Of a DNA stretch of 64,000 nt, positions 5,973-63,999 are shown piece by piece. A program made the position numbers and the translations under genes. Positions within the stretch are counted from its first letter, which is position 1. Every line of letters begins with the position of its first letter. Source of the DNA: an uncultured bacterium (GTDB lineage: Bacteria > B130-G9); assembly GCA_965372715.1 (NCBI GenBank), contig CBDVDH010000007.1, positions 18,580 to 82,579 on the forward strand, in the 5' to 3' direction. The notes under the pieces were generated by a model, which was not told the DNA's origin, made no database searches, and saw only the letters and a list, made by a program, of their open reading frames with translations.

Positions 5973-6550
5973 CTACCTATATGGCCTCGCCAAAGGAATG
6001 TGGACCAATGCTAAACGAAGGCGCCGCTGCCCAAGACATCTATTCAACACTAACATTATCGTCTGCGAAACTGGATAGATTAACAGGGTAAAGCAATACA
6101 ACATTATGCCCTGAACGAGAACCCCTACGCTCAACGGCCAGTCGTGTAAAACCTCCATCCTTGTGCGCCGACCAATCCCAGGTCCCCCGAAAGGACCTCG
6201 GTTTGTGAGCGTCCCAAGTTATCTTTCTGCGAGCCCGCTATGGCGTTTGCTGATATCATTCAGGAGGTTTCCCCAAATACGAGGTTCAAATCCCTGAGTG
6301 AGCTCCTGTATAGCCCTATTCAGCACTGTTGCGAAGTGGAATACGCCTGGCAGAAGGCCCGCACCAGGGGCCGTGCCCCGTTCGTGAGGGGCAGTTTGGC
6401 GCCTTTACAGTGGCTTAAACCAGTCCCTTTTCTCCCGTTTCACCAATGGGGAAACTCCTCTGGCGCCTTTGCGTTGACCAAGCTTGTTGTTATTGTTGTG
6501 GTCGTGTCGCGGATTTCAGCGGATTTGCCGAAGGTCTTGGGAACATACGG

Positions 6551-7855
6551 ATGTCGAACGTTACTGCACTTATGGATGACGCAACGAAGGTATGCCTGAG
6601 ATGCGGCTCGTGCCTTTCAGTGTGCCCGGTCTATAAGAGGCAGCTGACCGAGATGGTTACGCCTCGGGGCAAAATGGCGCTTGCCGAGGCGGTCTCGACC
6701 GGCGAGATCGGCGCGAAGCGCGACGTCGCCTCGTATCTCTCGCAGTGCCTCGTCTGCACGGCGTGCATGGACGAGTGCCCCAACAACCTCGACGTCGATG
6801 TCCGAATGATCGCCGGGCGGTCGGCCCTCCGGATGTACAAGCTCAGCAACTTGCCGTTTTTCGCAGCATTTCGCACCGTTTTGCAGACAAGGTCGCTGAT
6901 GGACCTCGGCGTATTCATCGGACGCCTGTTCCGCCGACTCTTGTTCTTCAAGGTTCCGGGCGAATCAGGGATGCACCTTCGATTTCCGATTATGGTCTCG
7001 AGGGATCGGCTGCTGCCAAAGATCGCACCCAGATCGTTCCTCAAGTCAGCCGCCGCCAGGCGCCGTTCCACGCCGAAGCAGACTACCAAGTGCACATCGG
7101 TCGCGTATTTCGTCGGCTGCATGGGCAACTACTCCTGCACTGAAGTCCCCCGCCATCTGCTCGAGCTGTTGCCTGAAGGCGACATCGCACTGTCGATCCC
7201 TCTGAAGCAGAAGTGCTGCGGAATGCCGGCCATCGTCTCCGGCGACCTCGTCTCCGCCAGGAGGCTGGCCAGGCAGAACGTCAAGGCCCTGCTCGAAACT
7301 GCCCCAGACAAGATAGTGATTGCCTGCGGCTCGTGTGGCTCGACGATTAAGCACTATTACCCAGTGCTCTTCAAGGATGACCCAAAGATGCGCGCCTCGG
7401 CCGAGGACGTCGCCTCGCGCATAATCGACGTGTCCGAGCTGCTCGTTGACATCCTGGGCCGCAGGGACTTCTCGGTCAACCGGGCTCTGCTAGAGCGCTT
7501 GGGACTCGATACTACAAGGCCCGTGAAGGTTACCTACCACGATGCGTGCCATCTAGGTCGGAGAATGAAGGTCATTGCTCAGCCGAGGACGATCCTGAAG
7601 AACACTGACGGCGCTAAGTTCGTTCCGATGCAGGATGAGACCGTCTGTTGCGGCTGTGGCGGGCTGTTCAGCGTGCACCACTACGACATTTCAAGCGCCA
7701 TAACTGCCGACAAGGCGCGAAACATCAAAGCGTCCGGAGCGGACATCGTCGCGACCGGCTGCCCGGCCTGCGCAATGCAAATAGCCGATGGACTTGCCCA
7801 CATCGGCCACAACATCCCCGTCGTCCACACAATCGAGCTGCTTGCGACTGAGTGA
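6551..7855 (+). CDS. (Fe-S)-binding protein, GlcF/LutA-like, with two CCG domains
   Basis: Two 4Fe-4S ferredoxin motifs (CLRCGSCLSVCP, CLVCTACMDECP) followed by two cysteine-rich CCG domains (CCGMPAI, CCGCGG). Start taken at the internal ATG (MSNVTALMDD); the track ORF begins at 6446. Confidence 0.75.
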   Translation: MSNVTALMDDATKVCLRCGSCLSVCPVYKRQLTEMVTPRGKMALAEAVSTGEIGAKRDVASYLSQCLVCTACMDECPNNLDVDVRMIAGRSALRMYKLSNLPFFAAFRTVLQTRSLMDLGVFIGRLFRRLLFFKVPGESGMHLRFPIMVSRDRLLPKIAPRSFLKSAAARRRSTPKQTTKCTSVAYFVGCMGNYSCTEVPRHLLELLPEGDIALSIPLKQKCCGMPAIVSGDLVSARRLARQNVKALLETAPDKIVIACGSCGSTIKHYYPVLFKDDPKMRASAEDVASRIIDVSELLVDILGRRDFSVNRALLERLGLDTTRPVKVTYHDACHLGRRMKVIAQPRTILKNTDGAKFVPMQDETVCCGCGGLFSVHHYDISSAITADKARNIKASGADIVATGCPACAMQIADGLAHIGHNIPVVHTIELLATE

Positions 7856-11442: not shown

Positions 11443-12126
11443 ATGCAGAAAACAGGGCTCTATTACAGGGAGCTGATCGGACTTAGAAAAGAGTTGTTGA
11501 GCCTGAAAAACTGCCAGATCACGTTTCTTACGTTTTCGGTCACAGCAACCGGCGTGCTCCTAGGCGTGGCGACTTCAATTGGCAGGATGAGCCCTGTCTT
11601 CGAGCTCATATTCCTGTTTCCCCTCATCGTGCTAGTGCCGTCGTGGTGGATCTTCTTTGACAAGGCGACAACAATCACTCGTGTAGTCGGGTACTACCGG
11701 ATCCTAGAAGACTTAGTCCTTGAACGCTATTCCGCTGACCAGTTTGTCGGTTGGGAGAACGCACTTCGCGAATTCAGAAAACGCCACGCAGCAAGCCAGC
11801 TGGGACCGCCCGCGAATGATGACCCTCACTCTTGGATTCGGCGGCTTTACCACACAATCGCTCTCCGGACGGGCCACAAGTATTGGATTATCTCATTCTC
11901 CACGTTTGCAGCGTTATCAGCGCTATGTGTCTCAATGAGCATTCAGGCCGCTAGATCCTGTTTTGCGCTTGCTATCGCCCTTACAGCTCTGGTGCTATTC
12001 TTAGCCTCCTTCGCTTGGAACGTGAGGCTGGTCTGGCTTTTTATATGTGGGCGCCACTCTTATGATTCGAACGAAAAATACTGGAAGGCTATACTGGGAG
12101 TCACACAACCTCGCACCCACACTTGA
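11443..12126 (+). CDS. hypothetical integral membrane protein (4 predicted TM helices)
   Basis: 227 aa with hydrophobic segments. No recognisable family. Located in the repeat-bounded accessory island. Confidence 0.45.
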   Translation: MQKTGLYYRELIGLRKELLSLKNCQITFLTFSVTATGVLLGVATSIGRMSPVFELIFLFPLIVLVPSWWIFFDKATTITRVVGYYRILEDLVLERYSADQFVGWENALREFRKRHAASQLGPPANDDPHSWIRRLYHTIALRTGHKYWIISFSTFAALSALCVSMSIQAARSCFALAIALTALVLFLASFAWNVRLVWLFICGRHSYDSNEKYWKAILGVTQPRTHT

Positions 12127-12273: not shown

Positions 12274-12738
12274 ATGTGCGCAGACCAACATCAACTTCCA
12301 TATTGGCAGGACGATGAGTCACTAGATCCCGAGATCTTTTTCAAGCTCCTTGTGAAGTGGTATGCGGGCCGGGATTTGACAGAGGCCGAATGCAAAGAAG
12401 GTGTCACTTTGGTAAGAGAGACTTTCGGCATCAGCCAGCTTCCTGGAGTCACTGGCGCAATCGCATCAGTTGTCCGAGGAAAAGGACCCAATGAGCCGAA
12501 CCTCAGGCTGGCCAAAGCTTCACGGGACGGAGGTTCTATGAGCCAGACTGATTTTGAGAAATTCTCAAAAAAACAGTGGTTGCGCACCAGACAGGACAAC
12601 TTCGCGGCTTGTCGTGGAGCCTTGCTCAATTGGATCCAGAACTATTGCCTTGAATTCACACAGAAGAAGACCAAGGGTCCGCTCGTCACCGACAGTATGG
12701 ATGAGTGGTTGAAACGTGTATTCGCGCTGAAATCGTAG
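12274..12738 (+). CDS. hypothetical protein
   Basis: 154-aa ORF in the accessory island. No recognisable motifs. Confidence 0.35.
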   Translation: MCADQHQLPYWQDDESLDPEIFFKLLVKWYAGRDLTEAECKEGVTLVRETFGISQLPGVTGAIASVVRGKGPNEPNLRLAKASRDGGSMSQTDFEKFSKKQWLRTRQDNFAACRGALLNWIQNYCLEFTQKKTKGPLVTDSMDEWLKRVFALKS

Positions 12739-13609: not shown

Positions 13610-13774
13610 AGCGGCTCCTTTCTTCATGATGAACCTTCACTTCGTCTGTTGCGTCCATACAATTAGGATATGATAGGGTGCCAGTTTCGTAAAGAGAAGT
13701 AAGGATGAAAGCGGAAGGATGCTCTTGAAGGATGAAAGATTTCGGATTGCGCAATGAGGAGGGATGAAGACGAC

Positions 13775-14860
13775 ATGACGAATCTGCCAGAGCGACGGGG
13801 TGATTCTCAGATTCTCCTCTACCAGATAGAGGACGGCCGGACGCGGATAGAAGTCCGCTTGGAACGCGAGACCGTTTGGCTGACGCAGCAACTGATGGCG
13901 GACCTCTTCCAGACAACAAAGCAGAATATCAGCCTCCATATTCAGAGCATTTTCCGGGAGGGGGAGCTGTCGCCGGAGGCAACTGTCAAGAAATACTTGA
14001 CAGTTCAACGCGAAGGCAACCGAGACGTGAGGCGTTATCTGGAATACTTCAATCTCGACGTAATCATATCCGTCGGCTACCGTGTGAAGTCCCACGTGGC
14101 CACCCGGTTCCGCATCTGGGCGACCCAGCGATTGCGGGAATACATTGTTAAAGGCTTCGCCTTGGATGACGAACGGCTGAAACAGGCCGGAGGTGGCAGT
14201 TACTTTGACGAATTGCTGGCCCGGATTCGCGACATCCGCTCTTCCGAGAAGGTCTTCTGGCGGAAGGCCCTGGATATATATGCGACGAGCATTGACTACA
14301 ACCCCAATACCGACGTGTCGCGCCAGTTCTTCAAGGTCGTTCAGAATAAGATCCACTGGGCGGCCCACGGGCACACGGCCGCCGAGATCATCAGTGCGAG
14401 GGCAGATGCATCCCGACCGAATATGGGGCTGACCTCATGGAGGGGAAGCAAGCCGACACGGGAGGACATCGACATCGCCAAGAACTACTTGAGCCTCGAG
14501 GAACTGGACGTCTTGAACCGAATTGTCTCCATATATCTGGACTTCGCGGAACTCCAAGCCCTGAACCGAAACCCCATGTATATGAGCGACTGGATCGCCA
14601 AACTAGATGACTTCATGCGCATCAGCGAGCGGGACATCCTGACGCACGCCGGGACTGTAAGCCACGATGAGGCGCTGGGAAAGGCACGAAAGGAGTATGA
14701 GACATATCGGAAGAGGATGCTGGAGGGACCTTCCGCGGTGGAGCGGCATTTTGTTGAGGTCGTCAATGAAGTGAAGCAGTTGGAGAAGAGCAAGCCACGA
14801 AAGGCCAAGAAACGCGCCAAACGTGGAAGGATGAAGGATGAATGGCGCTCTGATGTATGA
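13775..14860 (+). CDS. RhuM family virulence/Fic-like protein
   Basis: ILLYQIEDGRTRIEVRLERETVWLTQQLMADLFQ...YFNLDVIISVGYRVKSHVATRFRIWATQRLREYIVKGF, a RhuM hallmark. Start at MTNLPE is likely; the track ORF begins at 13754. Confidence 0.85.
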   Translation: MTNLPERRGDSQILLYQIEDGRTRIEVRLERETVWLTQQLMADLFQTTKQNISLHIQSIFREGELSPEATVKKYLTVQREGNRDVRRYLEYFNLDVIISVGYRVKSHVATRFRIWATQRLREYIVKGFALDDERLKQAGGGSYFDELLARIRDIRSSEKVFWRKALDIYATSIDYNPNTDVSRQFFKVVQNKIHWAAHGHTAAEIISARADASRPNMGLTSWRGSKPTREDIDIAKNYLSLEELDVLNRIVSIYLDFAELQALNRNPMYMSDWIAKLDDFMRISERDILTHAGTVSHDEALGKARKEYETYRKRMLEGPSAVERHFVEVVNEVKQLEKSKPRKAKKRAKRGRMKDEWRSDV

Positions 14861-16307: not shown

Positions 16308-19300
16308 TCACAGGTCAAACTCGTAGTAGGGCAGTGGATTCTCGCCAGCGCCCTGCAGCCAGCGCGCATCCGGTTTCCATGCGCCGTTCTTTTTCGTCCG
16401 CTTGCGAGCCTGAACTTTCACCTTCGCCTTCTCAACTGTAATCAGGCTGTATTGCCAAGGAACGGTCGGTGGTAGGTTTTCTGTCTTTACGCCGAATGTG
16501 CCGGCTGCGAGCACTTCGATCCTCCTCCCGCCTTGCTTGGCGTCGTACTTCCATAGCTGGTCCTGTGCTCCGTGAATGTGGCCGTGAAGCACTAACCTGA
16601 AACCCTCCAGCGCCAGAAGCTCCAAAAAGCCGTCTTCTTTGATGTATCCGTCTGATGCAATCGTGACTGGATGGTGCCAGACTCCTATCTTGAGGCATTC
16701 CTTGTATTGGTCGCGCTTCTCCGACATAGCGGACAACGCCAGCCCGAGCGCCTCAACGCATATATCCGATCCATCCTCATTGGATTTGTCGATCTGCCAC
16801 GCCGAGTTGAGACCGAGGAATACGACGCCCAGCTCTGGTATGTGGCGAAGGGTGACCTGTTTGCTGGGCGTCATTGAGTAGCTCGTGCCGGTTATTGCGT
16901 GATAGAACCGGGCGAAGTGATCCAATCCCCTCCTGGGTAGATTTGGGTCAGGTTGCGCGCTCGGCCGAGGCCCTGCGCTAGATGCTCCCGCAACGAGCTT
17001 GTAGTTGACGTCGTGGTTGCCTGGCACAATCACGACACGGTTCGGACCCACCCCAAATCGCTGCGTCAGTTTCTTGAAGAACCGCTCTGCCTCGGCATAT
17101 TCATTCCCGGTGGACAAGGTCCCCACGTCGCCAGAGATGACAATCGCGTCCAGTTGCTCGCAGTTCAGCTCCTTCGTCAGGTCCAACTGCAGCTGGCTGA
17201 ACCATAAGTCAGCCCTTTTCGCGGTAGTGAAATGAAGGTCCGAAAGGTGGAGAATGCTCATAGACTTGTCCTTTCTCGTATGTAAGTTATGACTGTAATA
17301 CCAACACTTCTGCTGGATGGCGGGGATTGCGTCTCTAGCAAGCGAGTAGTCTTGACCCGTTCGCATCCATGTTTCTAGCAAGGAGAGAGCTCGGGGATTC
17401 CCGGTTTCGGCCAGTGCATCAGCCGCTCTGTCGCGAACGGACCATTCCTGGGTTTTCAACGCTTGAAGTAGCGGAGTCAAAGCGGCTTCAGTGCCGATTC
17501 TGGCCAGTACGTGGACCGCGGTGTGGCGAACGTCCGAGTCCCCGTCTTCCAGCGCTTGAAGCAGCGGCATCACTGCGGCTTCACTCCCAATCTCGCCAAG
17601 GGCGTCGGCCGCGCTAGAACGAACATGCCAGTCCTTGTCTCTCAGCGCTTGAAGCAACGGTGTCACAGCGGATTCACTTCCGACCTCGCCCAGTGCGTAG
17701 GCCGCGCTGCTCCGAACAGCCGAGTTCTCGTCCTTCAGGGCTTGAAGCAGAGCCGTCAGAGCGGATTCACTTCCGATCTCGCCCAGTGCGTAGGCCGCCC
17801 TGCTGCGAACGACCCAGTCCTCGTCTTTTAGCGCTTGAAGCAGCGGCGTCACTGCGGCTTCATCCCCTATTCTGCCCAGCGCTTCGGCCGAGCTCCAGCG
17901 AACGGCCGAGTCCTCGTCTTTCAACGCTTGAAGCAGCGGCGTCACTGCGGCTTCAGTTCCGATCTTGCCCAGTGCGTCGGCCGCCATGCTGCGAACGAAC
18001 CGGTCCTGGTCTTTGAGCGCTTGAAGCAGCGGCGTCACTACCGCTTCTGTTCCGATTCTGCCCAGTGCGAGGGCCGCCTGCATGCGAACGTCCCGGCCCT
18101 CGTCTTTCAGTGCTTCAAGCAGAGCCGTCAGAGCGGATTCAGTTCCGATCTCTGCCAGTGCTTCGCCCGCGCTGCAGCGAACGAACAACTCCTCGTCTTT
18201 CAGCGCTTGAAGCAGTGGCGTCACTGCCGCTTCTGTTCCGATTCTGCCCAGTGCGCGGGCCGCCTCCTCGCGAATTTGCTGGTCCTCGTCTTTCAGTGCT
18301 TGAAGCAGTGGTTTCACAGCGGCTTCCGTTCCAATTTTGTCCAGTGCGCCGGCCGCGCTGCGGACAACGTGCCAGTCCTCGTCTTTCAGTGCTTGAAGCA
18401 GCGGCTTCACTGCGGCTTCAGTTCCGATTTCGCCCAGTGCGTAGGCCGCCATGCTGCGAGCGCACCAGTCCTCGTCTTTCAGTGCTTGAAGGAGCGCCTT
18501 CACAGCGGCTTCAGTTCCGATCTTCCCCAGTGCGTCGGCCGCGCTGCGGACAACGTACCAGTTCCCGTCTTTCAGTGCTTGAAGCAACGCCTTCACAGCG
18601 GCTTCAGTTCCGATTTCGCCCAGTGCGTAGGCCGCCTGGCGGCGAACGTACGAGACCTCGTCTTTCAGTGCTTGAAGCAACGCCTTCACAGCGGCTTCAG
18701 TTCCGATTTCGCCCAGTGCGTAGGCCGCCTGGCGGCGAACCGACCGGTCCCCGTCCTTGAGCGCTTGAAGCAGCGGCGTCAAAGCGGCTTCAGTTCCAAT
18801 TTTGCCCAGTGCGCCGGCCGCGCTGCTGCGAACGCAGAAGTCCTGGTCTTTCAGCGCTTGAAGCAGCGGCGTAACTGCGGCTTCAGTTCCGATTTCGCCC
18901 AGTGCTTCGACCGCGCTCTCGCGAACCATCCCGTTCTTATCGTTCAATGCTCGGACAAGTGGGGGCACGGCGGCTTCAGTTCCGATCTCGCCAAGCGCAT
19001 TGGCCGCGCTGCGGCGAAGGTCCGAGTCCTCGCCCTCCAAACTCATTGATAGGGGGGCCAGGGCCGCCTCCGAATGGGTCCTTTCCAGGAGGTCGATGAT
19101 AAGCGGCAAGTGAAGATCGAGGCCGGTTACCAGCTTAACCGACTCATCCTGAAATTCCCGCCTCACCGAGCCCGCCAACCTCGCTCCCAGCATCAAATCT
19201 ACATCAAGAGCCAGCCGCACTATGCGCAGCGCCTGCTCCTTGTTATCAACTAACTCCAACATCAGAGCCAGGGGCTCGGTCCACTTCAGGTAGTTCAGAT

Positions 19301-20531
19301 ACTCGCGCTTGAGCGTTTCGTCATCGAGCGTCAGGACAATCGTGAGGAGCTGCTCGGCGGCGTAGTATTCCTGGATCAATTGGTGTCGGAACTCGATGGC
19401 GTTGTCTGAAGCACGCTGGATGAGGTGATGGTTGATGAGATCCCTGAGCAGTTCGGCAGCGTCGATCTTCCCGGCCAAACCGCTGTCGGCAATGAACCGG
19501 CCCAGGATGTCCTTTCCCTGCTTCCCGTCAACAACAAGCCGAAGCTCCGTGGGTGAATCCGCTTGCAACATCTTGAAGGCCAGTTGTTGCAGCGCCTGCT
19601 CCCACGAGTCCCTGGATTCCTCCTTGACGGGCGCACCGTGTTTGACCGTCTTCTGGTATTGCTCGGCGAATGTCCGGAAGACCAGCCCAAGGTTCTCAGG
19701 CATCTCCTCAGTTCCCTTAAAGAGCGCGCAGAGCATCCAAAGGAAGAGCGGCGTTCGGGCCAATTCCTTGACACGGTCCCGCAGCTTCCTAACAAAGGCC
19801 TCTGACCGTCCCGGCAAGTATGCCTCGACGAACTGCTTGAGCTGCGGCTCTGTTAGCGGGAGCATGTCCAGCCGGCGCTCGATCCCAAGATCGAAGGCGC
19901 CGCCGAGCTCGCGCGTTGTGAAGGCCATCGGTGTCTTGGGGTGCAGGCTGCGGAAAGAGCTAACGGCCCTGCGAGAGTCCTCGGACGGAAGCTCATTCAG
20001 CCCGTCGAAGAGCAGGAGAAACCGCCCTTCGTCGAGCAGCCTATTCGCCTCGTCTTCTATAAGCTCCAACCCATGTTGCCCCAGAGAGCGCCTGATCAGA
20101 TTCATCGGCGTCTCCTGGTAGTGTTTGAGCTCCAATAGGACGGGGATTCTCTTCTTGGGATCGCGGCTGGCGGCTTCGGCCTCTTCCAAGAATAGCCGGG
20201 CCAGGGAGGTTGTCTTTCCGGACCCGGGCCGGCCGACGAGCAGGACGTGTTCGTTGGCGTATTTGCGCAGCCCCTCGACCACGCCCAACTTCTCGACACT
20301 CTCGCGTCTCGGCTCGCCAAACTTCCTTTCTTCCTTGCGTTGGCCGCGTTCTGGTCGCTGAGCTCTTTCCTTGAAAGCCTCCGCCATCAGGTCGAAGAGG
20401 TCGCGGCACCGGGTCTCTTCGCGCGACGCGTCAATCGGCGCGAACCGGTCCCACCACTTCGCGTGTTCCGCACAAACCGACTTCAGGTAGTCTTGCCACA
20501 GCTCACGGCTGACCATCGTGGATTCCTTCAT
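16308..20531 (-). CDS. NACHT-family P-loop NTPase / HEAT-repeat array (~18x31 aa) / C-terminal calcineurin-like metallophosphoesterase fusion protein (1407 aa)
   Basis: N-terminal Walker [13 protein letters not shown] with Walker [10 protein letters not shown] in a STAND/NACHT context. About 18 repeats of [23 protein letters not shown], a PBS-lyase HEAT signature. C-terminal [23 protein letters not shown] match PF00149 metallophosphoesterase motifs. Confidence 0.85.
17350..19070. repeat. tandem array of ~18 near-identical 93-bp units (HEAT repeats of the NACHT protein)
   Basis: Recurrent strings such as gcttgaagcagcggcgtcactgcggcttcagttccgat. The array also generates long spurious antisense ORFs on the + strand (17835-19049). 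Confidence 0.85.
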
Positions 20532-20890
20532 TGCGACTCACACATCGATATAGAGAACCTGCTGCGAACTTCGTTAAGGGGAATATAGCAAATGATATGC
20601 CGTTTGTCACGCCGCAATAGATGATTCAGCGGTGTTGAGGCAAGGAGACAGGTTCCTTTGAGATCGCGCCGTTCACAATCGTTGCGATTTCGTGGGCCCT
20701 GGATCATTGAGGAAGCGAATTATGGAGCCCCTACGCCCACCCACCACCCCAAAACACATAGATGAGGCCACTGTTCCCCAGGCTGCGCCTCTCGGCTTGC
20801 CTGGGGCTACTCACGTTATCCCCTTTCAGGGGATTCAGGATGGCTTCTAGGGAGGATTTCAGGCTTTGTATAGATTGACCATTCTCCACA

Positions 20891-21127
20891 TCAGCTGGAT
20901 GATGCGGCCAATCCTGTCCTTCCGATGGCGATGTCCTCGATCACAACCTTCCGGAAAACATCCGGATCGCCAAATCGCTTTTTCGCATCAAGAATCTCTA
21001 TCCCGGCAATGCGCCCGTCTTCTGCATAGTCAACGGCGAATCCTTCCGCAAGATGCTCTGTTGTTACGGTCGTTTCTATGAAGCGGATGTATAGCGCATC
21101 CAGATCGGCATCATATGTGATTCTCAT
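20891..21127 (-). CDS. DUF2283 family protein
   Basis: 78 aa: MRITYDADLDALYIRF...DGRIAGIEILDA (YDxExDxLYI motif). 4-nt overlap with the upstream PIN gene. Confidence 0.7.
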   Translation of the reverse strand: MRITYDADLDALYIRFIETTVTTEHLAEGFAVDYAEDGRIAGIEILDAKKRFGDPDVFRKVVIEDIAIGRTGLAASSS

Positions 21128-21540
21128 TTCCTCGAACTTCTCCGCAGCACATCGGCCGGCGTTTTCCGGCCCAGGTCTGTTCGGTCGAAGTCGCTGTCGA
21201 AGCTCAGAATGGTGAGGCCGTGCTTTTCTGCTACAACGTATTGATAGGCATCGTCGAAATCCAATTCAAACCTGCAAGCCGCGTCGGTCATGTCTTGCAT
21301 GTCTTCGGCAGACAGAGCGATCACTATCGTTCCGGCGTCAAGAATCATATCGGATGTGAACTGCTGGAAGAGCTCGTGCTTCTTCAGGCGAAAGAGAATA
21401 ACTCCTATCGAATGAAATGAGAAAGCTGAGATGAAGAGGTCATGCCTGTCCGCAGCTGCAAGGATGGACCGAGCCTCATCGGCCCGCGCCCGATCCAGAA
21501 TCACTTCAAGGAAAATGTTGGCATCGACTAATAGCCTCAT
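21124..21540 (-). CDS. PIN-domain ribonuclease toxin (VapC-like)
   Basis: RLLVDANIFLE N-terminal PIN acidic motif and further conserved Asp residues. ATGA start/stop overlap with the upstream antitoxin. Confidence 0.8.
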   Translation of the reverse strand: MRLLVDANIFLEVILDRARADEARSILAAADRHDLFISAFSFHSIGVILFRLKKHELFQQFTSDMILDAGTIVIALSAEDMQDMTDAACRFELDFDDAYQYVVAEKHGLTILSFDSDFDRTDLGRKTPADVLRRSSRK

Positions 21541-21761
21541 TCTTGCTCGATTCGCCAATCGGAGGCTTTGTGCTGCAATTCAACTGAGGTGTATTTGTCC
21601 CTCAAGTCCTTCAAGCCTCCCGCCCAGTCGAATCGGGGCTTGCGCCGCGGTCTGTTTGTGTGTTTCTCAAGCAGGAAGCCAGCGAAATCCCTTACTTCGA
21701 TCTGAAGGTTAGGAGGCAGCTCCTTGACAAGATCTTCCAGTGACTTTGCCATGTTACCCAT
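21537..21761 (-). CDS. DUF2281-type antitoxin
   Basis: 74 aa with LPPNLQIEVRDFAGFLLEK. Translationally coupled to the PIN gene. Confidence 0.6.
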   Translation of the reverse strand: MGNMAKSLEDLVKELPPNLQIEVRDFAGFLLEKHTNRPRRKPRFDWAGGLKDLRDKYTSVELQHKASDWRIEQE

Positions 21762-28921: not shown

Positions 28922-29116
28922 GCCGCGAAGAAGTAGTCGCACCACTGTCAGTGGATGTTTGGGTAGTGAGAGCCAAACCCGGCGGGGATCAGTGATTTGT
29001 ATGCTAAATGATGATGAATCCAGTATTCTAGTAACCGTGCGCGATGGATTGCTGCCGAAGTTGCCTTCGGGCGAGATCCTGGTGAGAGAGACGCAGAACT
29101 TTGTGGAGGATAGGAG

Positions 29117-29827
29117 ATGAATTTTGAGGTCTATTGCGACGAGAGTCATCCAGACGTCTTCTGGTCTCAGTCAAATGCTCGAGCGAGGTTCCTTCTGATC
29201 GGGGGTCTCTGGCTTGCGTCGGACCTGCGGCAGCAAGTTAAGGCAGACATCAACGCCCTCAAGCAACGCAATGGATTTGATTTGGAACACGAAATCAAAT
29301 GGCACAAAGTTCACCGAGGCAGACAGGATTTCTACACCCGCCTCATCGAGCTTTTCGTCGACTATGGTGATCGCTTGCGATTCCGGTGCATCGCGGTTGA
29401 GGGTGACCGGGTCGACCTGGTGCGGTGCCATGAAAGCGACAGCGAGCTCGGATTCTATAAGTTCTACTATGAAATGCTTAACGGTTGGATTGAGGATTCC
29501 AATGAATATCGGATCTTCTGTGATGAGAAGACGAACAGAGCCGGAGACAGGCTCAATACGCTGAGGACGGTCCTTCAGAACTCCAATAGCCTGTCGAGAA
29601 TCATATCGGTTCAGGCTTTGCCGTCCAGGCAGGTTCTCCTTATCCAGCTGACTGATTTCCTGCTTGGCATGGTATCGTCCAGAATGAATAGCTCAGTTCC
29701 CCGCGGTGGCTTCAAGGACACATTGATCAGGCGCCTGGAACAACACCTTGGCCGAGGCCGCATGGCCCCAACAGCGAAGTCCGAGGCGAAGTTCAATATC
29801 TTCCGAATTCACCTGCAGGACGAATAG
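29117..29827 (+). CDS. DUF3800 domain protein
   Basis: MNFEVYCDESHPD is the N-terminal DUF3800 signature (hhhDESG-like). 236 aa. Strong RBS ggaggataggag. Confidence 0.7.
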   Translation: MNFEVYCDESHPDVFWSQSNARARFLLIGGLWLASDLRQQVKADINALKQRNGFDLEHEIKWHKVHRGRQDFYTRLIELFVDYGDRLRFRCIAVEGDRVDLVRCHESDSELGFYKFYYEMLNGWIEDSNEYRIFCDEKTNRAGDRLNTLRTVLQNSNSLSRIISVQALPSRQVLLIQLTDFLLGMVSSRMNSSVPRGGFKDTLIRRLEQHLGRGRMAPTAKSEAKFNIFRIHLQDE

Positions 29828-29915
29828 CAGGATGCCACCTCCACCAAAGGTCAAGTATGCAACGGAATAGGAATATCGCGAATATTTTGAGAGCGTATAC
29901 TGTAGGACGCCGATT

Positions 29916-30272
29916 GTGACCTTCGATGGCATTCCGGTCCGCTTCAGAGAGAGCGACTTCGATCATTGCATGTTCGAGAGCTCAAAGCGCAACGGAGTCA
30001 AGGAAACATTCTCACGCAAGCGTGCTGAGAGGATAGACTGGATCAAAGCGACATTGGCTGATCCATCGGCCGATCTGCGTCAGGGATGGGATAAGCGGAG
30101 AAAGAGGATCGCGCCCGAACGCCGCGTTGCGATTGCATATGAGGAGTTCGCGGTGATTATTGCCATCAGCAAGCCAAAAAGAGGCGGATATATAGCGGAC
30201 TTCGTCACGGGCTTCTTGGCTGAAAACAACATCTTGAAGATCAAGGCGATGCCGCGTTGGGTAGGAATATGA
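29916..30272 (+). CDS. hypothetical protein downstream of the DUF3800 gene
   Basis: 118-aa ORF, same strand, 88 bp downstream. Confidence 0.35.
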   Translation: MTFDGIPVRFRESDFDHCMFESSKRNGVKETFSRKRAERIDWIKATLADPSADLRQGWDKRRKRIAPERRVAIAYEEFAVIIAISKPKRGGYIADFVTGFLAENNILKIKAMPRWVGI

Positions 30273-30528
30273 ATGCCGCTGGTGTGGCCCAGCGGCAGAA
30301 GCCTCTGTAGGTTCCCTACACTTGGTAAAGAACAACTATAACATAGTATCGTGTATAAGCTATGTCAAGCTTAAACATCCGGAAAACATAACAACAGATG
30401 AAAGCAAGTCTGAACGAGAACGCGCTGGAGCGAGCTACGCTACCATGGTTTGAGGGCTTCGGCTGAGAAGCCCTACAGGGGCCGGGCAAGGAGGCTGGGT
30501 TTGATCGGTACAAAAGGAGCATCGGGAC

Positions 30529-31086
30529 ATGCATGGCAAGGGAGACTTGATTCGGCCGCATGGCGGGTACCGCAGGCTGCGCAGTTTTCAGACGGCCCAA
30601 CTCGTGTATGACGCGACCGTTGTATTCTGCAGTCGCTTCGTTGACAAGCGTTCTCGTACGCACGACCAAATGGTGCAGGCCGCCCGCAGCGGGGTGCAGA
30701 ATATCGCCTAAGGCAGTATGGCCTCGGGAACCTCGAAGAAGATGGAACTCAAGTTGACGGACGTTGCGAGAGCCAGCCTGGAAGAACTGCTCCTGGACTA
30801 CGAGGACTTCCTGCGGCAGCGGGGATTGCGCATCTGGGCGAAGGAGTCGCCGCAGGCGCTTTCGGTGAGGAGGAAGTACCGGTCGGACAGGTGGGACACG
30901 TCGTATATCTATGGTATCAAGACGGCTTCTGCCGAGGTTGCGGCGAACACCATCATCTGTTTAGTGAACCAGGCGAGTTTCCTGCTTGGGAGGCAATTGA
31001 AGAAGCTGGAGCAGTCATTTCTTGCAGAGGGGGGATTCACCGAGCGGCTTTACCGCAAGCGGCATGAGCGACGAGGGCATACATGA
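30529..31086 (+). pseudogene. four-helix-bundle (Avd/TIGR02436-like) protein gene interrupted by an in-frame TAA
   Basis: Two ORFs in the same frame, 30529-30711 and 30718-31086, are separated by a single TAA exactly where the family motif NIAEG is expected (reads QNIA*GS). Confidence 0.5.
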
Positions 31087-31143
31087 TCGTTTTCAAGCAA
31101 TCCAACCTCGAAGAGCGGCGTTGGCTTGACTGGAGGACCTGAC

Positions 31144-48694: not shown

Positions 48695-50143
48695 TCAATT
48701 CGCTTTATCCAAATAGCTTTGTGAAATCCTCATCTCAGGCATCAGCCCGAAGAAAAAATGCTTCATCCGAAATCGTGCTATCGGCTGATAAATCGACGCC
48801 AGTAGCGTCAGGAGTTTCGTGCAGACGAAGTCCTTCGCCTTTGAATCGATGAAGAAGGACAGAAAATACAAGCTCTCAAGCACCCTCTTATCGCGCCTCG
48901 AAAGCCAGGGCATATCGCTTCTCTCCATCTTGAGCTCGCCCCACTCAGCGAGGGTCTCCGGCTCCTCGAAGCCGTATCGCAAGGTGTCCTCGTAGAGGTC
49001 GGAACCAGGATACGGGATATAGGTCGCAAGCGCAGTGATCGTGGCTTTTGGGTTCTCAAGCATCACCCGAATGATCAGCTCAACCGTCTTCTTAAGGTCC
49101 GCCTCACGCTCATAAGGAAGCCCCGTTATGAAGCTGTATCGCGGGATTATATCGACCTGGGCGAGGCGCCGGTTCACATCGAACAGCTGGGCCATCTTGA
49201 GCTTCTTGCCGACTCGCTTGAGTATGCGCTCAGAGCCCGATTCGACACCGAAATAGAGCCTGCGGCAGCCGCTTCTTTCTAGCAGCTTGAGGTCCGCGTC
49301 GCTCAACGTTGACATCTCCGGGATGTGGCCGCCTGTCGTTGTCCAAGTTATGCCGGCCCCAACGAGCGCCTCGGATATCCGCATTACTCGCTTGATATCG
49401 ACTGAGTAGTTCTCATCCACGATGTAGAAGTGCTTTGCGTTGAATCGCTCGCCCGCTCTCAGCATGTGCTCGACGAAAACGTCCGCCGAGAACGCGCGCC
49501 ATCTGCGTCTATGGAAGACCTTGTTGTAGCAGAACGTGCAGTTGTTTGGGCAGCCTCGTGAGCTCTCGATGTAGAACGTGGGCTTCTCAAATTCAAGCGG
49601 CAGATAGTCTGTGAAATCAACGAGGTCGTACGGCATTTCGGGCAGCGTGTCCATCTCAATGAGGTCCCGAGGGCCAGTGTAGTGCGGCTTGCCATCCAAC
49701 TCGAACCACAGGCCGAGCACGTCCTTGAGGTCTGTGCCGGATTTGAGAGCACTCAGGAGCTCAAAGAACGTCGCTTCACCCTCGCCCTCGACGATGATAT
49801 CGACGCCTGGGTCTGAAAGCGACTGCTCAGGCAGCAGCGTCGTGTGGGCCCCGCCCCAGACGATTGGCACGTCTGAATGGGCCCGGACGAACGATGTGAT
49901 CTCTAGCGCGTGCTTGATCTGGTTGCCGGTCAGACTGTGGATACCAACGCAGAGAGGTGATGAGTTCAGCTCCTTCAGAAGGCTCTGACGCCATTCCTCA
50001 TCGACGCGCTGGTCAATGAGGACTGTGTCAAACTCACCCGCGACGTATCGCGCGGTGGCGAGCAGACCCAGAGGCGGCGTCGGGCTCGTCCTGAGCGTGT
50101 CCCAGTGCCCGAATATCGGCTCCACCAAAACTACTTCAGCCAT
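48695..50143 (-). CDS. B12-binding domain-containing radical SAM protein
   Basis: N-terminal cobalamin-binding fold, then CPNNCTFCYN (CxxxCxxC). Confidence 0.85.
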   Translation of the reverse strand: MAEVVLVEPIFGHWDTLRTSPTPPLGLLATARYVAGEFDTVLIDQRVDEEWRQSLLKELNSSPLCVGIHSLTGNQIKHALEITSFVRAHSDVPIVWGGAHTTLLPEQSLSDPGVDIIVEGEGEATFFELLSALKSGTDLKDVLGLWFELDGKPHYTGPRDLIEMDTLPEMPYDLVDFTDYLPLEFEKPTFYIESSRGCPNNCTFCYNKVFHRRRWRAFSADVFVEHMLRAGERFNAKHFYIVDENYSVDIKRVMRISEALVGAGITWTTTGGHIPEMSTLSDADLKLLERSGCRRLYFGVESGSERILKRVGKKLKMAQLFDVNRRLAQVDIIPRYSFITGLPYEREADLKKTVELIIRVMLENPKATITALATYIPYPGSDLYEDTLRYGFEEPETLAEWGELKMERSDMPWLSRRDKRVLESLYFLSFFIDSKAKDFVCTKLLTLLASIYQPIARFRMKHFFFGLMPEMRISQSYLDKAN

Positions 50144-61695: not shown

Positions 61696-63999
61696 CTAAT
61701 CGAGCGTCTGGCCCAGACTCTTCTGCGCCTCAACCAGACAGCCATTGCCGTTGGATGAGTTGTAGAGAAGCGCCCAGGCGATGAGAGGCAATGGGGCCAC
61801 GGCCTCTGATGTAATGGTCAGACAACCGTAACCGACGCTGTCCGCGTCGCTGGCACGCACCTCGACGAAGCCGCCCGGAATCACCTCAAATGGGAACTCG
61901 CCAACAAGGAGACCGTGCCGGTCCTTGAGGGATATCTTACCGGGCACGTTCACCTGGTTCGGGTTTCGGACCCAAATGAACGTCTCCTGATACCGCAGCC
62001 CATCGAACTCCCAATATGGGATATAAATGGGTGGCGTGTAGCTTCTCGACGCCGGGACAGGATAGAACTGCGACCTCTTGGCGTTCAGCCAGACAGCAAA
62101 TACGCCGATCTCATCGTCGTCAGCCCAAATCGCACGAGCCCAGCCACTTTCCCCGGCCATCGTGCATCTGCTCGCCTGAATGACACTCATACCGCCTGCC
62201 GATACCGATGTGAGGTCTGCGCCCCGAATCATACCCATATCATTGTAGAAGCTTATCTGGGGAGCGGCTAAGGTGTCACCGAGGTTTGAGAACACTATGT
62301 ATGTGTCGAGGTTGAAGAGCGGTTGGTTTCTCCAGGTCGGCACGAAGTAGGGTGACAGCTCGGCGTTTTCGAGAACGGGCAGCTCGAATCCGCCGCCCCT
62401 GACCCTGTTGAGCATAACGGCCCATACCCGGAGCGGATCGCTGAAGACCATCCTTGCCGAGCCGATGTTTGTGTCCAGAACCGTCTCTGACAGCAGCAGT
62501 GCCCTGGTTCCAGAGGGAGCCATGTTGGCGTGTATTGTGTCAATCTCGGCGCCAAACTCATCAAAGAGGATGATCTCAGCGCTCACGTCGCGGTCGTGCT
62601 GGTTGGCCAGGGCGATAAACGTGTCGAAAGTGACCTCGTTCCCGCCGCCGGGTGAATTGTCCCTAATAACCTGCCAGAATGGCATCTGAAGCGGCCCTGG
62701 CCTCGCGCCGGCCAGGTCCAGGGATATGGTCGGACCAACATCTACCTTGCCCCAGACGACAAGACTGCCATTCCTCCAGCTGATGTAGCCTGTTCCGGAG
62801 TCGGAGCCGGTTACACCCGGGACCTCAGATATCTTCAGCACCTTTGTCTCTTTTCCAGCTACCGGCACCAGATACCGCTCTATCGGCTGGCCATTGTATC
62901 TCGAAAGCACCACTTCCACACCAACAGGGTCCGGGCCAATGTTGGTCATCACTATACTGGTCTCGAAGTTTGGTGATATGTTCTTCTCAACGAGCCAGAA
63001 TGGGATGGCGGCCTCGTCTCCGTGCTTGATCACGGGGCCGATGAGGTAGCCGGTTTCGGGAACTCTCGCTGTTCCTCCGTAGCCGTCATTCGCAAAGAAG
63101 TAGTAATGGTGCTCGCCAGTCGATAGCGTTCCAGGTGATGCAGTGTAAGCGTATGTTCCGTCGTAGTCTTCTCCAGAGGTGAGCCACATCCGGCGCTCTT
63201 GGCCGTCCAACCATACGGACATGAGATGCGGCGCATCTCCCTGTTCATCGAAGTAATCAACTGAGAACACGTATCTTTCGAGGAAGCCGCCCCGCTCTGG
63301 GTCAACCGCTGGATTGCTCAGAATGGGAGGGATGTTGGTCTTGCGGACGTAGGGACCCTCGAACTCATCCCCGGGCGTTCCCGGCATTCTCGTCTCGGCG
63401 CCCAGGCTGTCCGTGGCGTAGAACCAATACGAGTGGAGTCCCTCGAAAAGGCCCACAACTGGCACACCGTAAACACCGTTCTCAGGTGTCCCGGACAAAA
63501 GCTCCATCTCGTAAAGCTCCCCATCGAGATAAAGATGCGTCTGCCCAGCTGGATTGGCGTTGATGTCTGAATACCTGGCGCTGAACATAAACTCGGTGGT
63601 CGCGGTGCCGGACGCGGGGTCCACCATCCCGTCGGTCAGAACAGGGCGCGTGTTGGTCCCGGTAACGTTCGGGCCAGATATCTCGCCCCTGATCGGGAGT
63701 CGACCTGCGCCGCCCGTCTCATCGATAAAGCTGAAGTAGAAGCTGTGGCTGCCCAACGCGAGATCAGATATCCTGCAATAATAAGTGGCGCCGCTCGCGA
63801 AATTTGTCAAGGCCGGTACCGTCGTACTCTCGCCCTCGTCAGTCACGCCCTCCAGGAACGTCATCTCGTGTGGAGAGCTATCGACAACGACCGTCTTGTT
63901 GATCGGCATATAGTCGTGAGGACTGGTATAACGCACGGTGAACGTAACCGGGGTCTCGACCAGCGGGTTCCTGGGCGAAACGATGCCGTCTGAGAGCAT
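61696..63999 (-). CDS. large hypothetical (probably extracellular) protein, N-terminus beyond the window end
   Basis: More than 767 aa of open frame running off the window. Ser/Gly/Thr-rich with repeated YxxxxxGxxxF segments. No catalytic motifs recognised. Confidence 0.5.
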   Translation of the reverse strand: MLSDGIVSPRNPLVETPVTFTVRYTSPHDYMPINKTVVVDSSPHEMTFLEGVTDEGESTTVPALTNFASGATYYCRISDLALGSHSFYFSFIDETGGAGRLPIRGEISGPNVTGTNTRPVLTDGMVDPASGTATTEFMFSARYSDINANPAGQTHLYLDGELYEMELLSGTPENGVYGVPVVGLFEGLHSYWFYATDSLGAETRMPGTPGDEFEGPYVRKTNIPPILSNPAVDPERGGFLERYVFSVDYFDEQGDAPHLMSVWLDGQERRMWLTSGEDYDGTYAYTASPGTLSTGEHHYYFFANDGYGGTARVPETGYLIGPVIKHGDEAAIPFWLVEKNISPNFETSIVMTNIGPDPVGVEVVLSRYNGQPIERYLVPVAGKETKVLKISEVPGVTGSDSGTGYISWRNGSLVVWGKVDVGPTISLDLAGARPGPLQMPFWQVIRDNSPGGGNEVTFDTFIALANQHDRDVSAEIILFDEFGAEIDTIHANMAPSGTRALLLSETVLDTNIGSARMVFSDPLRVWAVMLNRVRGGGFELPVLENAELSPYFVPTWRNQPLFNLDTYIVFSNLGDTLAAPQISFYNDMGMIRGADLTSVSAGGMSVIQASRCTMAGESGWARAIWADDDEIGVFAVWLNAKRSQFYPVPASRSYTPPIYIPYWEFDGLRYQETFIWVRNPNQVNVPGKISLKDRHGLLVGEFPFEVIPGGFVEVRASDADSVGYGCLTITSEAVAPLPLIAWALLYNSSNGNGCLVEAQKSLGQTLD

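Follow-up and report, generated by a model that had tools for sequence, protein, structure and literature searches.

The stretch of DNA analysed here, called the window throughout (64,000 nucleotides from an uncultured bacterium of the B130-G9 lineage; contig CBDVDH010000007.1, positions 18,580 to 82,579), carries on its reverse strand an intact gene for a protein that joins a NACHT-type nucleoside triphosphatase (NTPase) module, a long array of HEAT repeats and a calcineurin-like metallophosphoesterase (MPE). The coordinates of these features are collected in Table 1. A database protein that is 100% identical to the product, P0241, is annotated as starting at Met6 of the open reading frame (ORF). 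A preliminary description of this DNA had proposed such a single chain, with the NACHT module at the N-terminus, about 18 repeats and the MPE at the C-terminus, and this architecture was borne out by Pfam, by the motifs and by a count of exactly 18 repeats. We are, in fact, highly confident that the gene encodes a bNACHT-type protein equipped with an effector of the Calcineurin-CE type.

Table 1. The NACHT-HEAT-MPE gene, its domains and its upstream promoter-like site, with positions in the window.
Feature	Residues	Positions	Strand	Basis and remarks
NACHT-HEAT-MPE coding sequence, complete	1407 aa	16308..20531	-	ATG start, stop codon included; ORF list and translation
NACHT module	1-490	19062..20531	-	N-terminal helical extension, P-loop nucleotide-binding domain (NBD), helical domain, winged helix, helical domain 2
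Walker A, GRPGSGKT, Lys106	100-107	20211..20234	-	Near-invariant in 74 homologs
Walker B with NACHT extension	171-180	19992..20021	-	Motif search; four of its residues invariant in 74 of 74 sequences
18 HEAT repeats (PBS-lyase/alphaRep type), presumed sensor	494-1051	17379..19052	-	Pfam, repeat analysis, Tandem Repeats Finder (TRF)
Linker from last HEAT repeat to MPE	1052-1090	17262..17378	-	Translation; without Pfam domain
Calcineurin-like MPE, including a family-specific C-terminal beta extension	1091-1407	16311..17261	-	Conflict-effector type
Promoter-like site, GTGACA-17 nt-TATATT with TG extension		20582..20610	-	10 of 12 positions; 50-80 nt 5' of the ATG; consensus match only

The preliminary description had made its reading depend on the N-terminal module being a STAND NTPase, and this identification held. 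Pfam NACHT (PF05729) was matched over residues 96-239 with 38.0 bits against a gathering score of 26.7 (AAA_22 stayed under its Pfam threshold), and a profile derived from residues 1-490 together with 35 homologs matched NLRC4 in the PDB over the NTPase region (E 4.6e-10). The AlphaFold model of the module (pLDDT 84.6, pTM 0.84) has the fold of an NLR: all 50 of the 50 matches listed by Foldseek against the PDB were animal NLRs (NLRC4, NOD2, NLRP3, NAIP5, NLRP9 and related proteins), with TM values of about 0.62-0.65 on the query and NLRC4 as the best match (E 9e-15, TMq 0.65). With animal NLRs such as NLRC4, NOD2, NLRP3 and NAIP5 the protein shares the succession of NBD, first helical domain, winged-helix domain and second helical domain, a homology to NLRC4 that is visible at the sequence level, and a general plan in which a NACHT switch is combined with an effector and a repeat sensor. 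It differs from them, however, in its sensor, which consists of HEAT rather than leucine-rich repeats (LRR), in its C-terminal enzymatic effector, where animal NLRs have an N-terminal CARD or PYD adaptor, and in the DGxNE extension of its Walker B motif. No Avs model was found among the PADLOC matches, which comprised domain-level matches to the HEAT and MPE parts and a weak one to mad8.

At the opposite end of the chain, Pfam Metallophos (PF00149) was matched over residues 1091-1321 (E 3e-13), and the motifs expected of such an enzyme are all intact (D1098-x-H, G1134-D, G1171-NHD, WHH at about 1285-1287, and G1317-H-x-H); those that bind metal are conserved in 74 homologs and invariant in alignment A2. 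The best match of this domain among 18,950 NCBIfam models was DS9_1, the anti-phage phosphoesterase DS-9A (E 4e-24, profile positions 186-481 of 486), a domain-only match that covers the whole Cal domain and scores 85 bits, under the cutoff of 420. The model of the DS8 anti-phage protein (NF053861) was also matched (E 5.5e-19, profile positions 1-233 of 994), with the MPE alone aligning, the domain order reversed and 67.4 bits against an equivalog cutoff of 790, and PADLOC gave a domain-level match to PDC-S60. The closest solved structure to the MPE model (residues 1080-1407; pLDDT 85, pTM 0.88) in Foldseek was Bacillus subtilis YydB (9a6c_B), for which a literature search found no function, followed by Rv0805 and GpdQ. 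The MPE family comprises 415 clusters (50% identity) at E <= 1e-30, and its members are found fused to EAD1, EAD8, TIR and SEFIR domains (EAD1-MPE, EAD8-MPE, TIR-MPE and SEFIR/TIR-MPE), with EAD8 preceding the MPE, in the region of our linker, in some homologs of the window protein; they also stand at either end of giant proteins, as in MPE-NACHT-HEAT, MPE-nSTAND1-WD40 and LRR-pentapeptide-MPE. Judging from these relatives, the domain can be classified as a conflict effector of the Calcineurin-CE or Calcineurin-conf type that would behave as a swappable immune effector. Calcineurin-CE was reportedly defined by Nicastro et al. in Nucleic Acids Research in 2023, and the definition used here is the one handed down by the paper on PUA-Cal-HAD. 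A phage-borne origin was considered and set aside, as viral contigs carried MPE relatives of 20-34% identity only.

Two anti-phage systems with related phosphoesterases help to place this effector. DS-8 (DefensePredictor, Science 2026, PMC13092281) is a validated single-protein metallophosphatase and NACHT system of E. coli whose defence needs both the catalytic residues of the MPE and the ATPase residue of the NACHT; like the window protein, it unites a homologous MPE and a NACHT NTPase in a single polypeptide, but DS-8 has its MPE at the N-terminus and is not described as having a HEAT array, whereas in the window protein the MPE is C-terminal and follows the repeats. DS-9, to which the best curated match of our MPE belongs, corresponds to PUA-Cal-HAD (PMC13092281; bioRxiv 10.64898/2026.01.15.699771). 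In this system the Calcineurin-CE domain becomes active after assembly into filaments or higher-order structures, turns dNDP into dNMP and cleaves NAD+ in vitro, and brings about a collapse of dNTP levels and abortive infection (bioRxiv 10.64898/2026.01.15.699771). The sensor of PUA-Cal-HAD is a PUA domain that binds m6-dAMP, while that of the window protein is its NACHT-HEAT module, and PUA-Cal-HAD needs a HAD partner gene, while no HAD gene lies beside the window gene or those of its homologs that were examined. By analogy, the biochemistry of PUA-Cal-HAD and the fold neighbours of the MPE favour an activity directed at nucleotides over that of a nuclease.

The array that separates switch from enzyme is strikingly regular. 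Pfam HEAT_2 and HEAT_PBS were matched with E-values of 1e-143 and 1e-110 from about residue 500 to 1075, the repeats resolve into 18 units of 31 residues each, and TRF reports a 93-bp unit in 17.4 copies at 17411-19032. Within the 31-residue repeat the framework positions are nearly invariant, and entropy is highest at positions 10, 11, 14, 15 and 18 and, more weakly, at 22. When the array was searched against PDB sequences, artificial alphaRep proteins were matched with E-values down to 4e-126; these and the natural PBS-type HEAT-like repeats have, in fact, the same 31-residue framework (...ALKDEDxxVRxxAAxALGxIG...; PMC3754942). In alphaReps, randomised positions 18, 19, 22, 23, 26 and 30 form the concave, target-binding face seen in crystal complexes (PMC3754942), and the spacing of the variable positions of our array is identical to that of these six. 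The variable residues thus sit at the positions with which alphaReps bind their targets, and the array looks like a recognition surface. Unlike alphaReps, which are stand-alone engineered binders with 1-6 repeats, the window protein has 18 natural repeats between an NTPase and an enzyme. The link to alphaReps suggests that its recognition surface may be open to residue-by-residue prediction, an unusual prospect among bacterial NLRs. A precedent for a solenoid sensor is provided by the anti-phage protein DSR2 (PMC11850899), in which a phage structural protein is recognised by a C-terminal alpha-solenoid domain and a nucleotide-degrading enzyme on the same chain is thereby switched on. DSR2 is not homologous to the window protein, however; it lacks a STAND NTPase and carries its effector, a SIR2 NADase, at the N-terminus. 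The DNA that encodes the repeats also holds, wholly within it and on the opposite strand, an ORF of 404 codons (17835-19049, +), which is almost certainly a shadow ORF generated by repeat composition and not a gene.

A metagenomic contig, here L086, made it possible to compare the gene with a syntenic ortholog. The gene order there is ABC2, GNAT, AAA, LigA, small genes resembling toxin-antitoxin (TA) modules, NACHT-HEAT-MPE (P0244, 1261 aa) and Der. Identity between window and L086 amounts to 92% for the AAA protein, 87% for Der and 82% for LigA, to 67% for both the NACHT module and the MPE, and to about 30% for the HEAT region, which in L086 is irregular and shorter than in the window. At the DNA level the HEAT-coding part cannot be aligned, while both intragenic flanks align at 72-74%. 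The sensor is the fastest-evolving part of the gene, as expected for an immune receptor, and with its array alone remodelled the pair is well suited to mapping specificity by swapping. The same comparison speaks against the view, held in the preliminary description, that convergence on der is a sign of insertion: because the ortholog fills the same slot between der and ligA in L086, and because the flanking genes are 82-92% identical, the gene is a resident of this position in its lineage and not a recent insertion. A compositional island was discarded for the same locus, as the G+C content of the gene (0.56-0.61) equals that of its surroundings.

The domain order is not confined to these two proteins. 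By motif order it recurs in at least 74 of the 120 best database homologs, and a search with the full-length protein returned dozens of proteins of 1200-1750 residues that combine PF05729, HEAT families and PF00149. A search with the NACHT module returned hundreds of NACHT and HEAT proteins at 45-49% identity, of which the named ones are cyanobacterial, and overall the module is 45-53% identical to that of the cyanobacterial members; the tripartite homologs come from Moorena, Symploca, Anabaena, Nostoc, Calothrix, Coleofasciculus, Fischerella and one Desulfomonilaceae metagenome-assembled genome (MAG), and are mostly cyanobacterial where named. The preliminary description had regarded the family as undescribed, a view that the census of Kibby et al. 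(bioRxiv 10.1101/2022.07.19.500537; Cell 186:2410, 2023) overturns. Its Table S1 lists, in clade 22, Fischerella muscicola WP_016860991.1 as "NACHT+HEAT_2+Calcineurin-conf", next to NACHT+HEAT+ABhydrolase, NACHT+HEAT+DrHyd and NACHT+TCAD10+caspase entries. Kibby et al. consider HEAT repeats as sensors of the antigen-receptor type, count calcineurin-like phosphoesterases among the effectors and place some effectors "at the extreme C-terminus", following tandem repeats. The window protein, which has no N-terminal effector, shares with clade 22 the order of NACHT, HEAT and C-terminal conflict-type calcineurin-like phosphoesterase, a likeness that rests on architecture and on the above NACHT similarity to cyanobacterial NACHT-HEAT proteins and not on phylogeny. 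The Fischerella protein, however, has about 1015 residues and a single HEAT_2 match, against 1407 residues and 18 regular repeats in ours. Given that the architecture stands in a published census and that the effector family was validated in two other anti-phage systems, the protein does not represent a new class; its gene is, rather, an intact and apparently monocistronic representative of a sub-architecture with the effector placed after the repeats.

An effector census was made over the 119 best full-length homologs. An MPE was present in 73 of them, at the C-terminus, and a TIR domain in 11, mostly at the C-terminus and with the Walker A motif near residue 86-88 in eight of these; caspase domains (four proteins) were C-terminal and trypsin domains (three proteins) N-terminal. 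TIR-bearing NACHT modules are 74% identical to MPE-bearing ones, and caspase-bearing ones reach 70%. Close relatives among the NACHT scaffolds carry TIR or caspase in place of the MPE, a modular exchange of effectors that is mirrored by the sister architectures of clade 22, where ABhydrolase, DrHyd or caspase domains come after the HEAT repeats. A separation of the parts was seen in Nostoc sp. HK-01, where consecutive genes, NIES2109_27040 and _27050 (P0008 and P0124), encode a NACHT+HEAT protein of 604 residues and an MPE protein of 475 residues, and in Calothrix NIES-2100 and Moorena producens comparable pairs lie on one contig. The HK-01 pair is either a true two-gene split or the product of a frameshift or assembly break in the repeats.

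A role in conflict or defence, as the preliminary description had envisaged, is the reading that best accommodates the evidence, which is indirect but concordant: the identity of the NACHT module, the defence-associated relatives of the MPE, the EAD and TIR fusions, the exchange of effectors, the placement of the variable repeat positions and the rapid divergence of the sensor. Extending homology with bNACHT proteins, DS-8 and PUA-Cal-HAD to the individual steps, we consider it reasonably probable that the protein works as a single-polypeptide, NLR-like immune sensor with a C-terminal effector, and that the whole chain of events leads to abortive infection. The resting protein would be an autoinhibited monomer. 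The HEAT surface would bind either a protein of an invader, such as a phage, or a host protein that the system guards, and this binding would lift autoinhibition and license an NTP-dependent oligomerisation through the NACHT module, which would cluster the MPE domains and switch them on. The MPE would then hydrolyse a small molecule of the nucleotide type, with depletion of (d)NDP/(d)NTP or NAD+ pools as the most likely outcome and cleavage of a cyclic nucleotide as a possible alternative, and growth would arrest and the infection abort.

Several findings weigh against this reading. The loci of the homologs hold mostly unrelated housekeeping genes, and TA pairs adjoin the gene in two of five of them. 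PADLOC returned domain-level matches and no model covering the whole protein, our literature search found no experimental test of the exact NACHT-HEAT-MPE architecture, and the substrate of DS-8 has not been established (PMC13092281). Furthermore, the NACHT signature given by Kibby et al. is D[GAS]hDE, that is a small residue after the Mg-binding Asp and then two acidic residues, whereas the Walker B extension of this family reads DG[VIL]NE (D176-G-L-N179-E180 in the window protein): the first acidic residue is replaced by Asn, while the Mg-binding Asp, the small residue after it and the terminal Glu are kept. As D176, G177, N179 and E180 are invariant in 74 of 74 aligned family members, the Asn is a clade-wide variant and not the decay of a single gene. 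With this signature, hydrolysis of NTP may differ from that of canonical NACHT proteins.

It is unlikely, in our opinion, that the protein has no part in anti-phage defence and serves housekeeping or developmental signalling instead, whether as a STAND-regulated cyclic-nucleotide phosphodiesterase, as a programmed-cell-death or kin-recognition factor of multicellular bacteria, or as a HEAT protein related to the phycobilisome. The family is indeed concentrated in filamentous cyanobacteria, but a scan of large ORFs in the window revealed no photosynthesis genes, and its host is probably not a cyanobacterium. Its HEAT_PBS repeats are similar to CpcE, CpcF and NblB, but these models matched the repeats only, and under their curated cutoffs (CpcE 268.9 vs 330, NblB 230 vs 300 and CpcF 145 vs 220 bits). 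The JGI annotation of the MPE as CpdA-like would also agree with a signalling function, yet the effector is swapped for TIR or caspase on near-identical scaffolds. Finally, the gene keeps its place between der and ligA in two genomes, and its homologs sit amid housekeeping genes, but none of these loci revealed a conserved operon partner, and the sensor region diverges much faster than the flanking genes. A conflict system fits better than a housekeeping one because of this divergence, the effector swaps, the missing partner, the sub-cutoff scores with CpcE, CpcF and NblB and the lack of photosynthesis genes among the large ORFs examined, although a part in cell death or kin recognition is conceivable.

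As to the chemistry of the effector, the preliminary description had entertained both a nuclease and a phosphodiesterase, and of the two the Mre11/SbcD-like nuclease came out the weaker, with small-molecule phosphodiesterases and DS-9A/DS-8 being closer. We regard it as distinctly improbable that the same NLR-like switch would activate an MPE that degrades DNA (or RNA): the PADLOC model "Effector / Endonuclease" (PDLC00736) does match residues 1094-1323 (E 7e-14), and SbcD and Mre11 figure among sequence and fold matches, but the NCBIfam SbcD models (E 2e-5) reach 24.6 bits, far under their threshold of 77.65, the top curated matches are DS-9A and DS-8, from a family that acts on nucleotides, and no Rad50/SbcC-like gene was found near the target or in the homolog loci examined. 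Very improbable, lastly, is an MPE that is a signal-degrading or regulatory domain, removing for example a cyclic (oligo)nucleotide messenger and leaving the output to a separate, unlinked effector, since, even if the authors of DS-8 propose cyclic-nucleotide degradation by analogy with SMPDL3A (PMC13092281), Kibby et al. class calcineurin-like phosphoesterases as "nucleotide-signal-generating/degrading enzymes" and the cyclic-nucleotide phosphodiesterases Lmo2642 and Rv0805 are among the nearest solved folds, sister proteins carry bona fide killing effectors, TIR or caspase, in the slot of the MPE, the homolog loci examined have no conserved cyclase or further effector nearby, and the Calcineurin-CE of PUA-Cal-HAD acts directly on nucleotide pools (bioRxiv 10.64898/2026.01.15.699771).

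Staying with a single-polypeptide immune sensor as the preferred reading, we would add, as a speculation that we hold to be doubtful, that the array may serve as an "antigen receptor", a natural counterpart of alphaReps, and may diversify as a cassette through intragenic recombination and repeat turnover, so that recognition would become lineage-specific, with the C-terminal MPE imposing a distinct activation geometry and acting on a substrate that might differ from those of DS-8 and PUA-Cal-HAD. Were this true, cassette diversification would explain why the arrays of two syntenic orthologs with 67% identity in NACHT and MPE cannot be aligned.

With regard to the organisation of the locus, no partner gene is conserved across the five loci of full-length homologs. 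The 93 nucleotides before the ATG (20532-20623) are 84% identical to L086, though the neighbouring TA genes cannot be aligned, and this stretch contains the promoter-like site of Table 1 and could hold a regulatory element too. The lack of a conserved partner, together with a promoter-like site of its own, points to a stand-alone, single-gene system, as far as sequence features can tell. An ORF of 59 codons at 20528-20707 was rejected as a co-translated partner, having no Pfam or PADLOC match, not being conserved in L086 and overlapping both the promoter-like site and the start codon of the target. Likewise, a predicted membrane protein of 167 residues was rejected as a general component of the system, as it occurs in two Nostocaceae loci only (Anabaena FACHB-595, L001:6869-7372, and Nostoc sp. 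MS1, L003:6835-7338, both on the reverse strand) and is absent from the window, L002, L004, L005 and L086; the two copies are 85% identical, have no Pfam match, and are encoded divergently about 600 bp 5' of the NACHT-HEAT-MPE gene.

On one side of the target lie XseA, PyrD, two ORFs without Pfam match, HicA/HicB, RhuM and Der, and on the other, beyond its start, DUF2283, PIN, DUF2281 and then LigA; HicAB and the DUF2281, PIN and DUF2283 genes are TA-like, and a terminator-like hairpin lies 3' of the DUF2283 gene. The TA-rich neighbourhood of the preliminary description is real, with the members named there (HicAB, RhuM and DUF2281-PIN-DUF2283), but there is no island in terms of composition, and the neighbourhood is variable and not conserved. 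Both the segment beyond der (RhuM, HicAB and two ORFs) and the TA genes between ligA and the target vary in comparison with L086: the window has a DUF2281-PIN-DUF2283 cassette at 21124-21558 (-), whereas L086:8241-9126 has an ORF of 103 codons, DUF2283 and DUF2281, in a changed order and without the PIN gene. The RhuM-family protein (13754-14860, +) matches the PADLOC phage-defence candidate PDC-S05 (E 9e-147) and belongs to the segment beyond der without an L086 counterpart. The neighbourhood is enriched in small mobile modules.

The host itself deserves a comment. The window encodes a CCG/4Fe-4S protein and a B12-binding radical SAM enzyme (for example at 6446-7855 and 48695-50143), and the best relatives of Der among the matches listed, at 47-48% identity, come from MAGs labelled Deltaproteobacteria or Syntrophomonadaceae. 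Since the host is probably non-cyanobacterial, while nearly all named homologs are cyanobacterial, a horizontal spread of the NACHT-HEAT-MPE family is suggested, and part of the residual interest of the gene is that a family typical of cyanobacteria apparently occurs outside this group.

Among minor observations, the interval between PyrD and HicAB holds two ORFs, at 11443-12126 (+, 227 aa) and 12274-12738 (+, 154 aa), that have no Pfam or PADLOC match and are absent from L086, and an ORF of 767 codons at the edge of the window (61696-63999, -) gave no match to Pfam (E <= 1e-5) or PADLOC. About 2.2 kb of the window (28922-31138) are without counterpart in L086, where the flanking blocks lie just about 220 bp apart. 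In the Desulfomonilaceae MAG, a protein of 1027 residues with an FGE-sulfatase domain (L002:2765-5848, +) is encoded about 2 kb upstream of the NACHT-HEAT-MPE homolog, with a DUF4160/DUF2442 pair and two small Pfam-less ORFs between them; Kibby et al. count FGS domains as the other "antigen-receptor" type, which makes the gene another candidate for a role in conflict.

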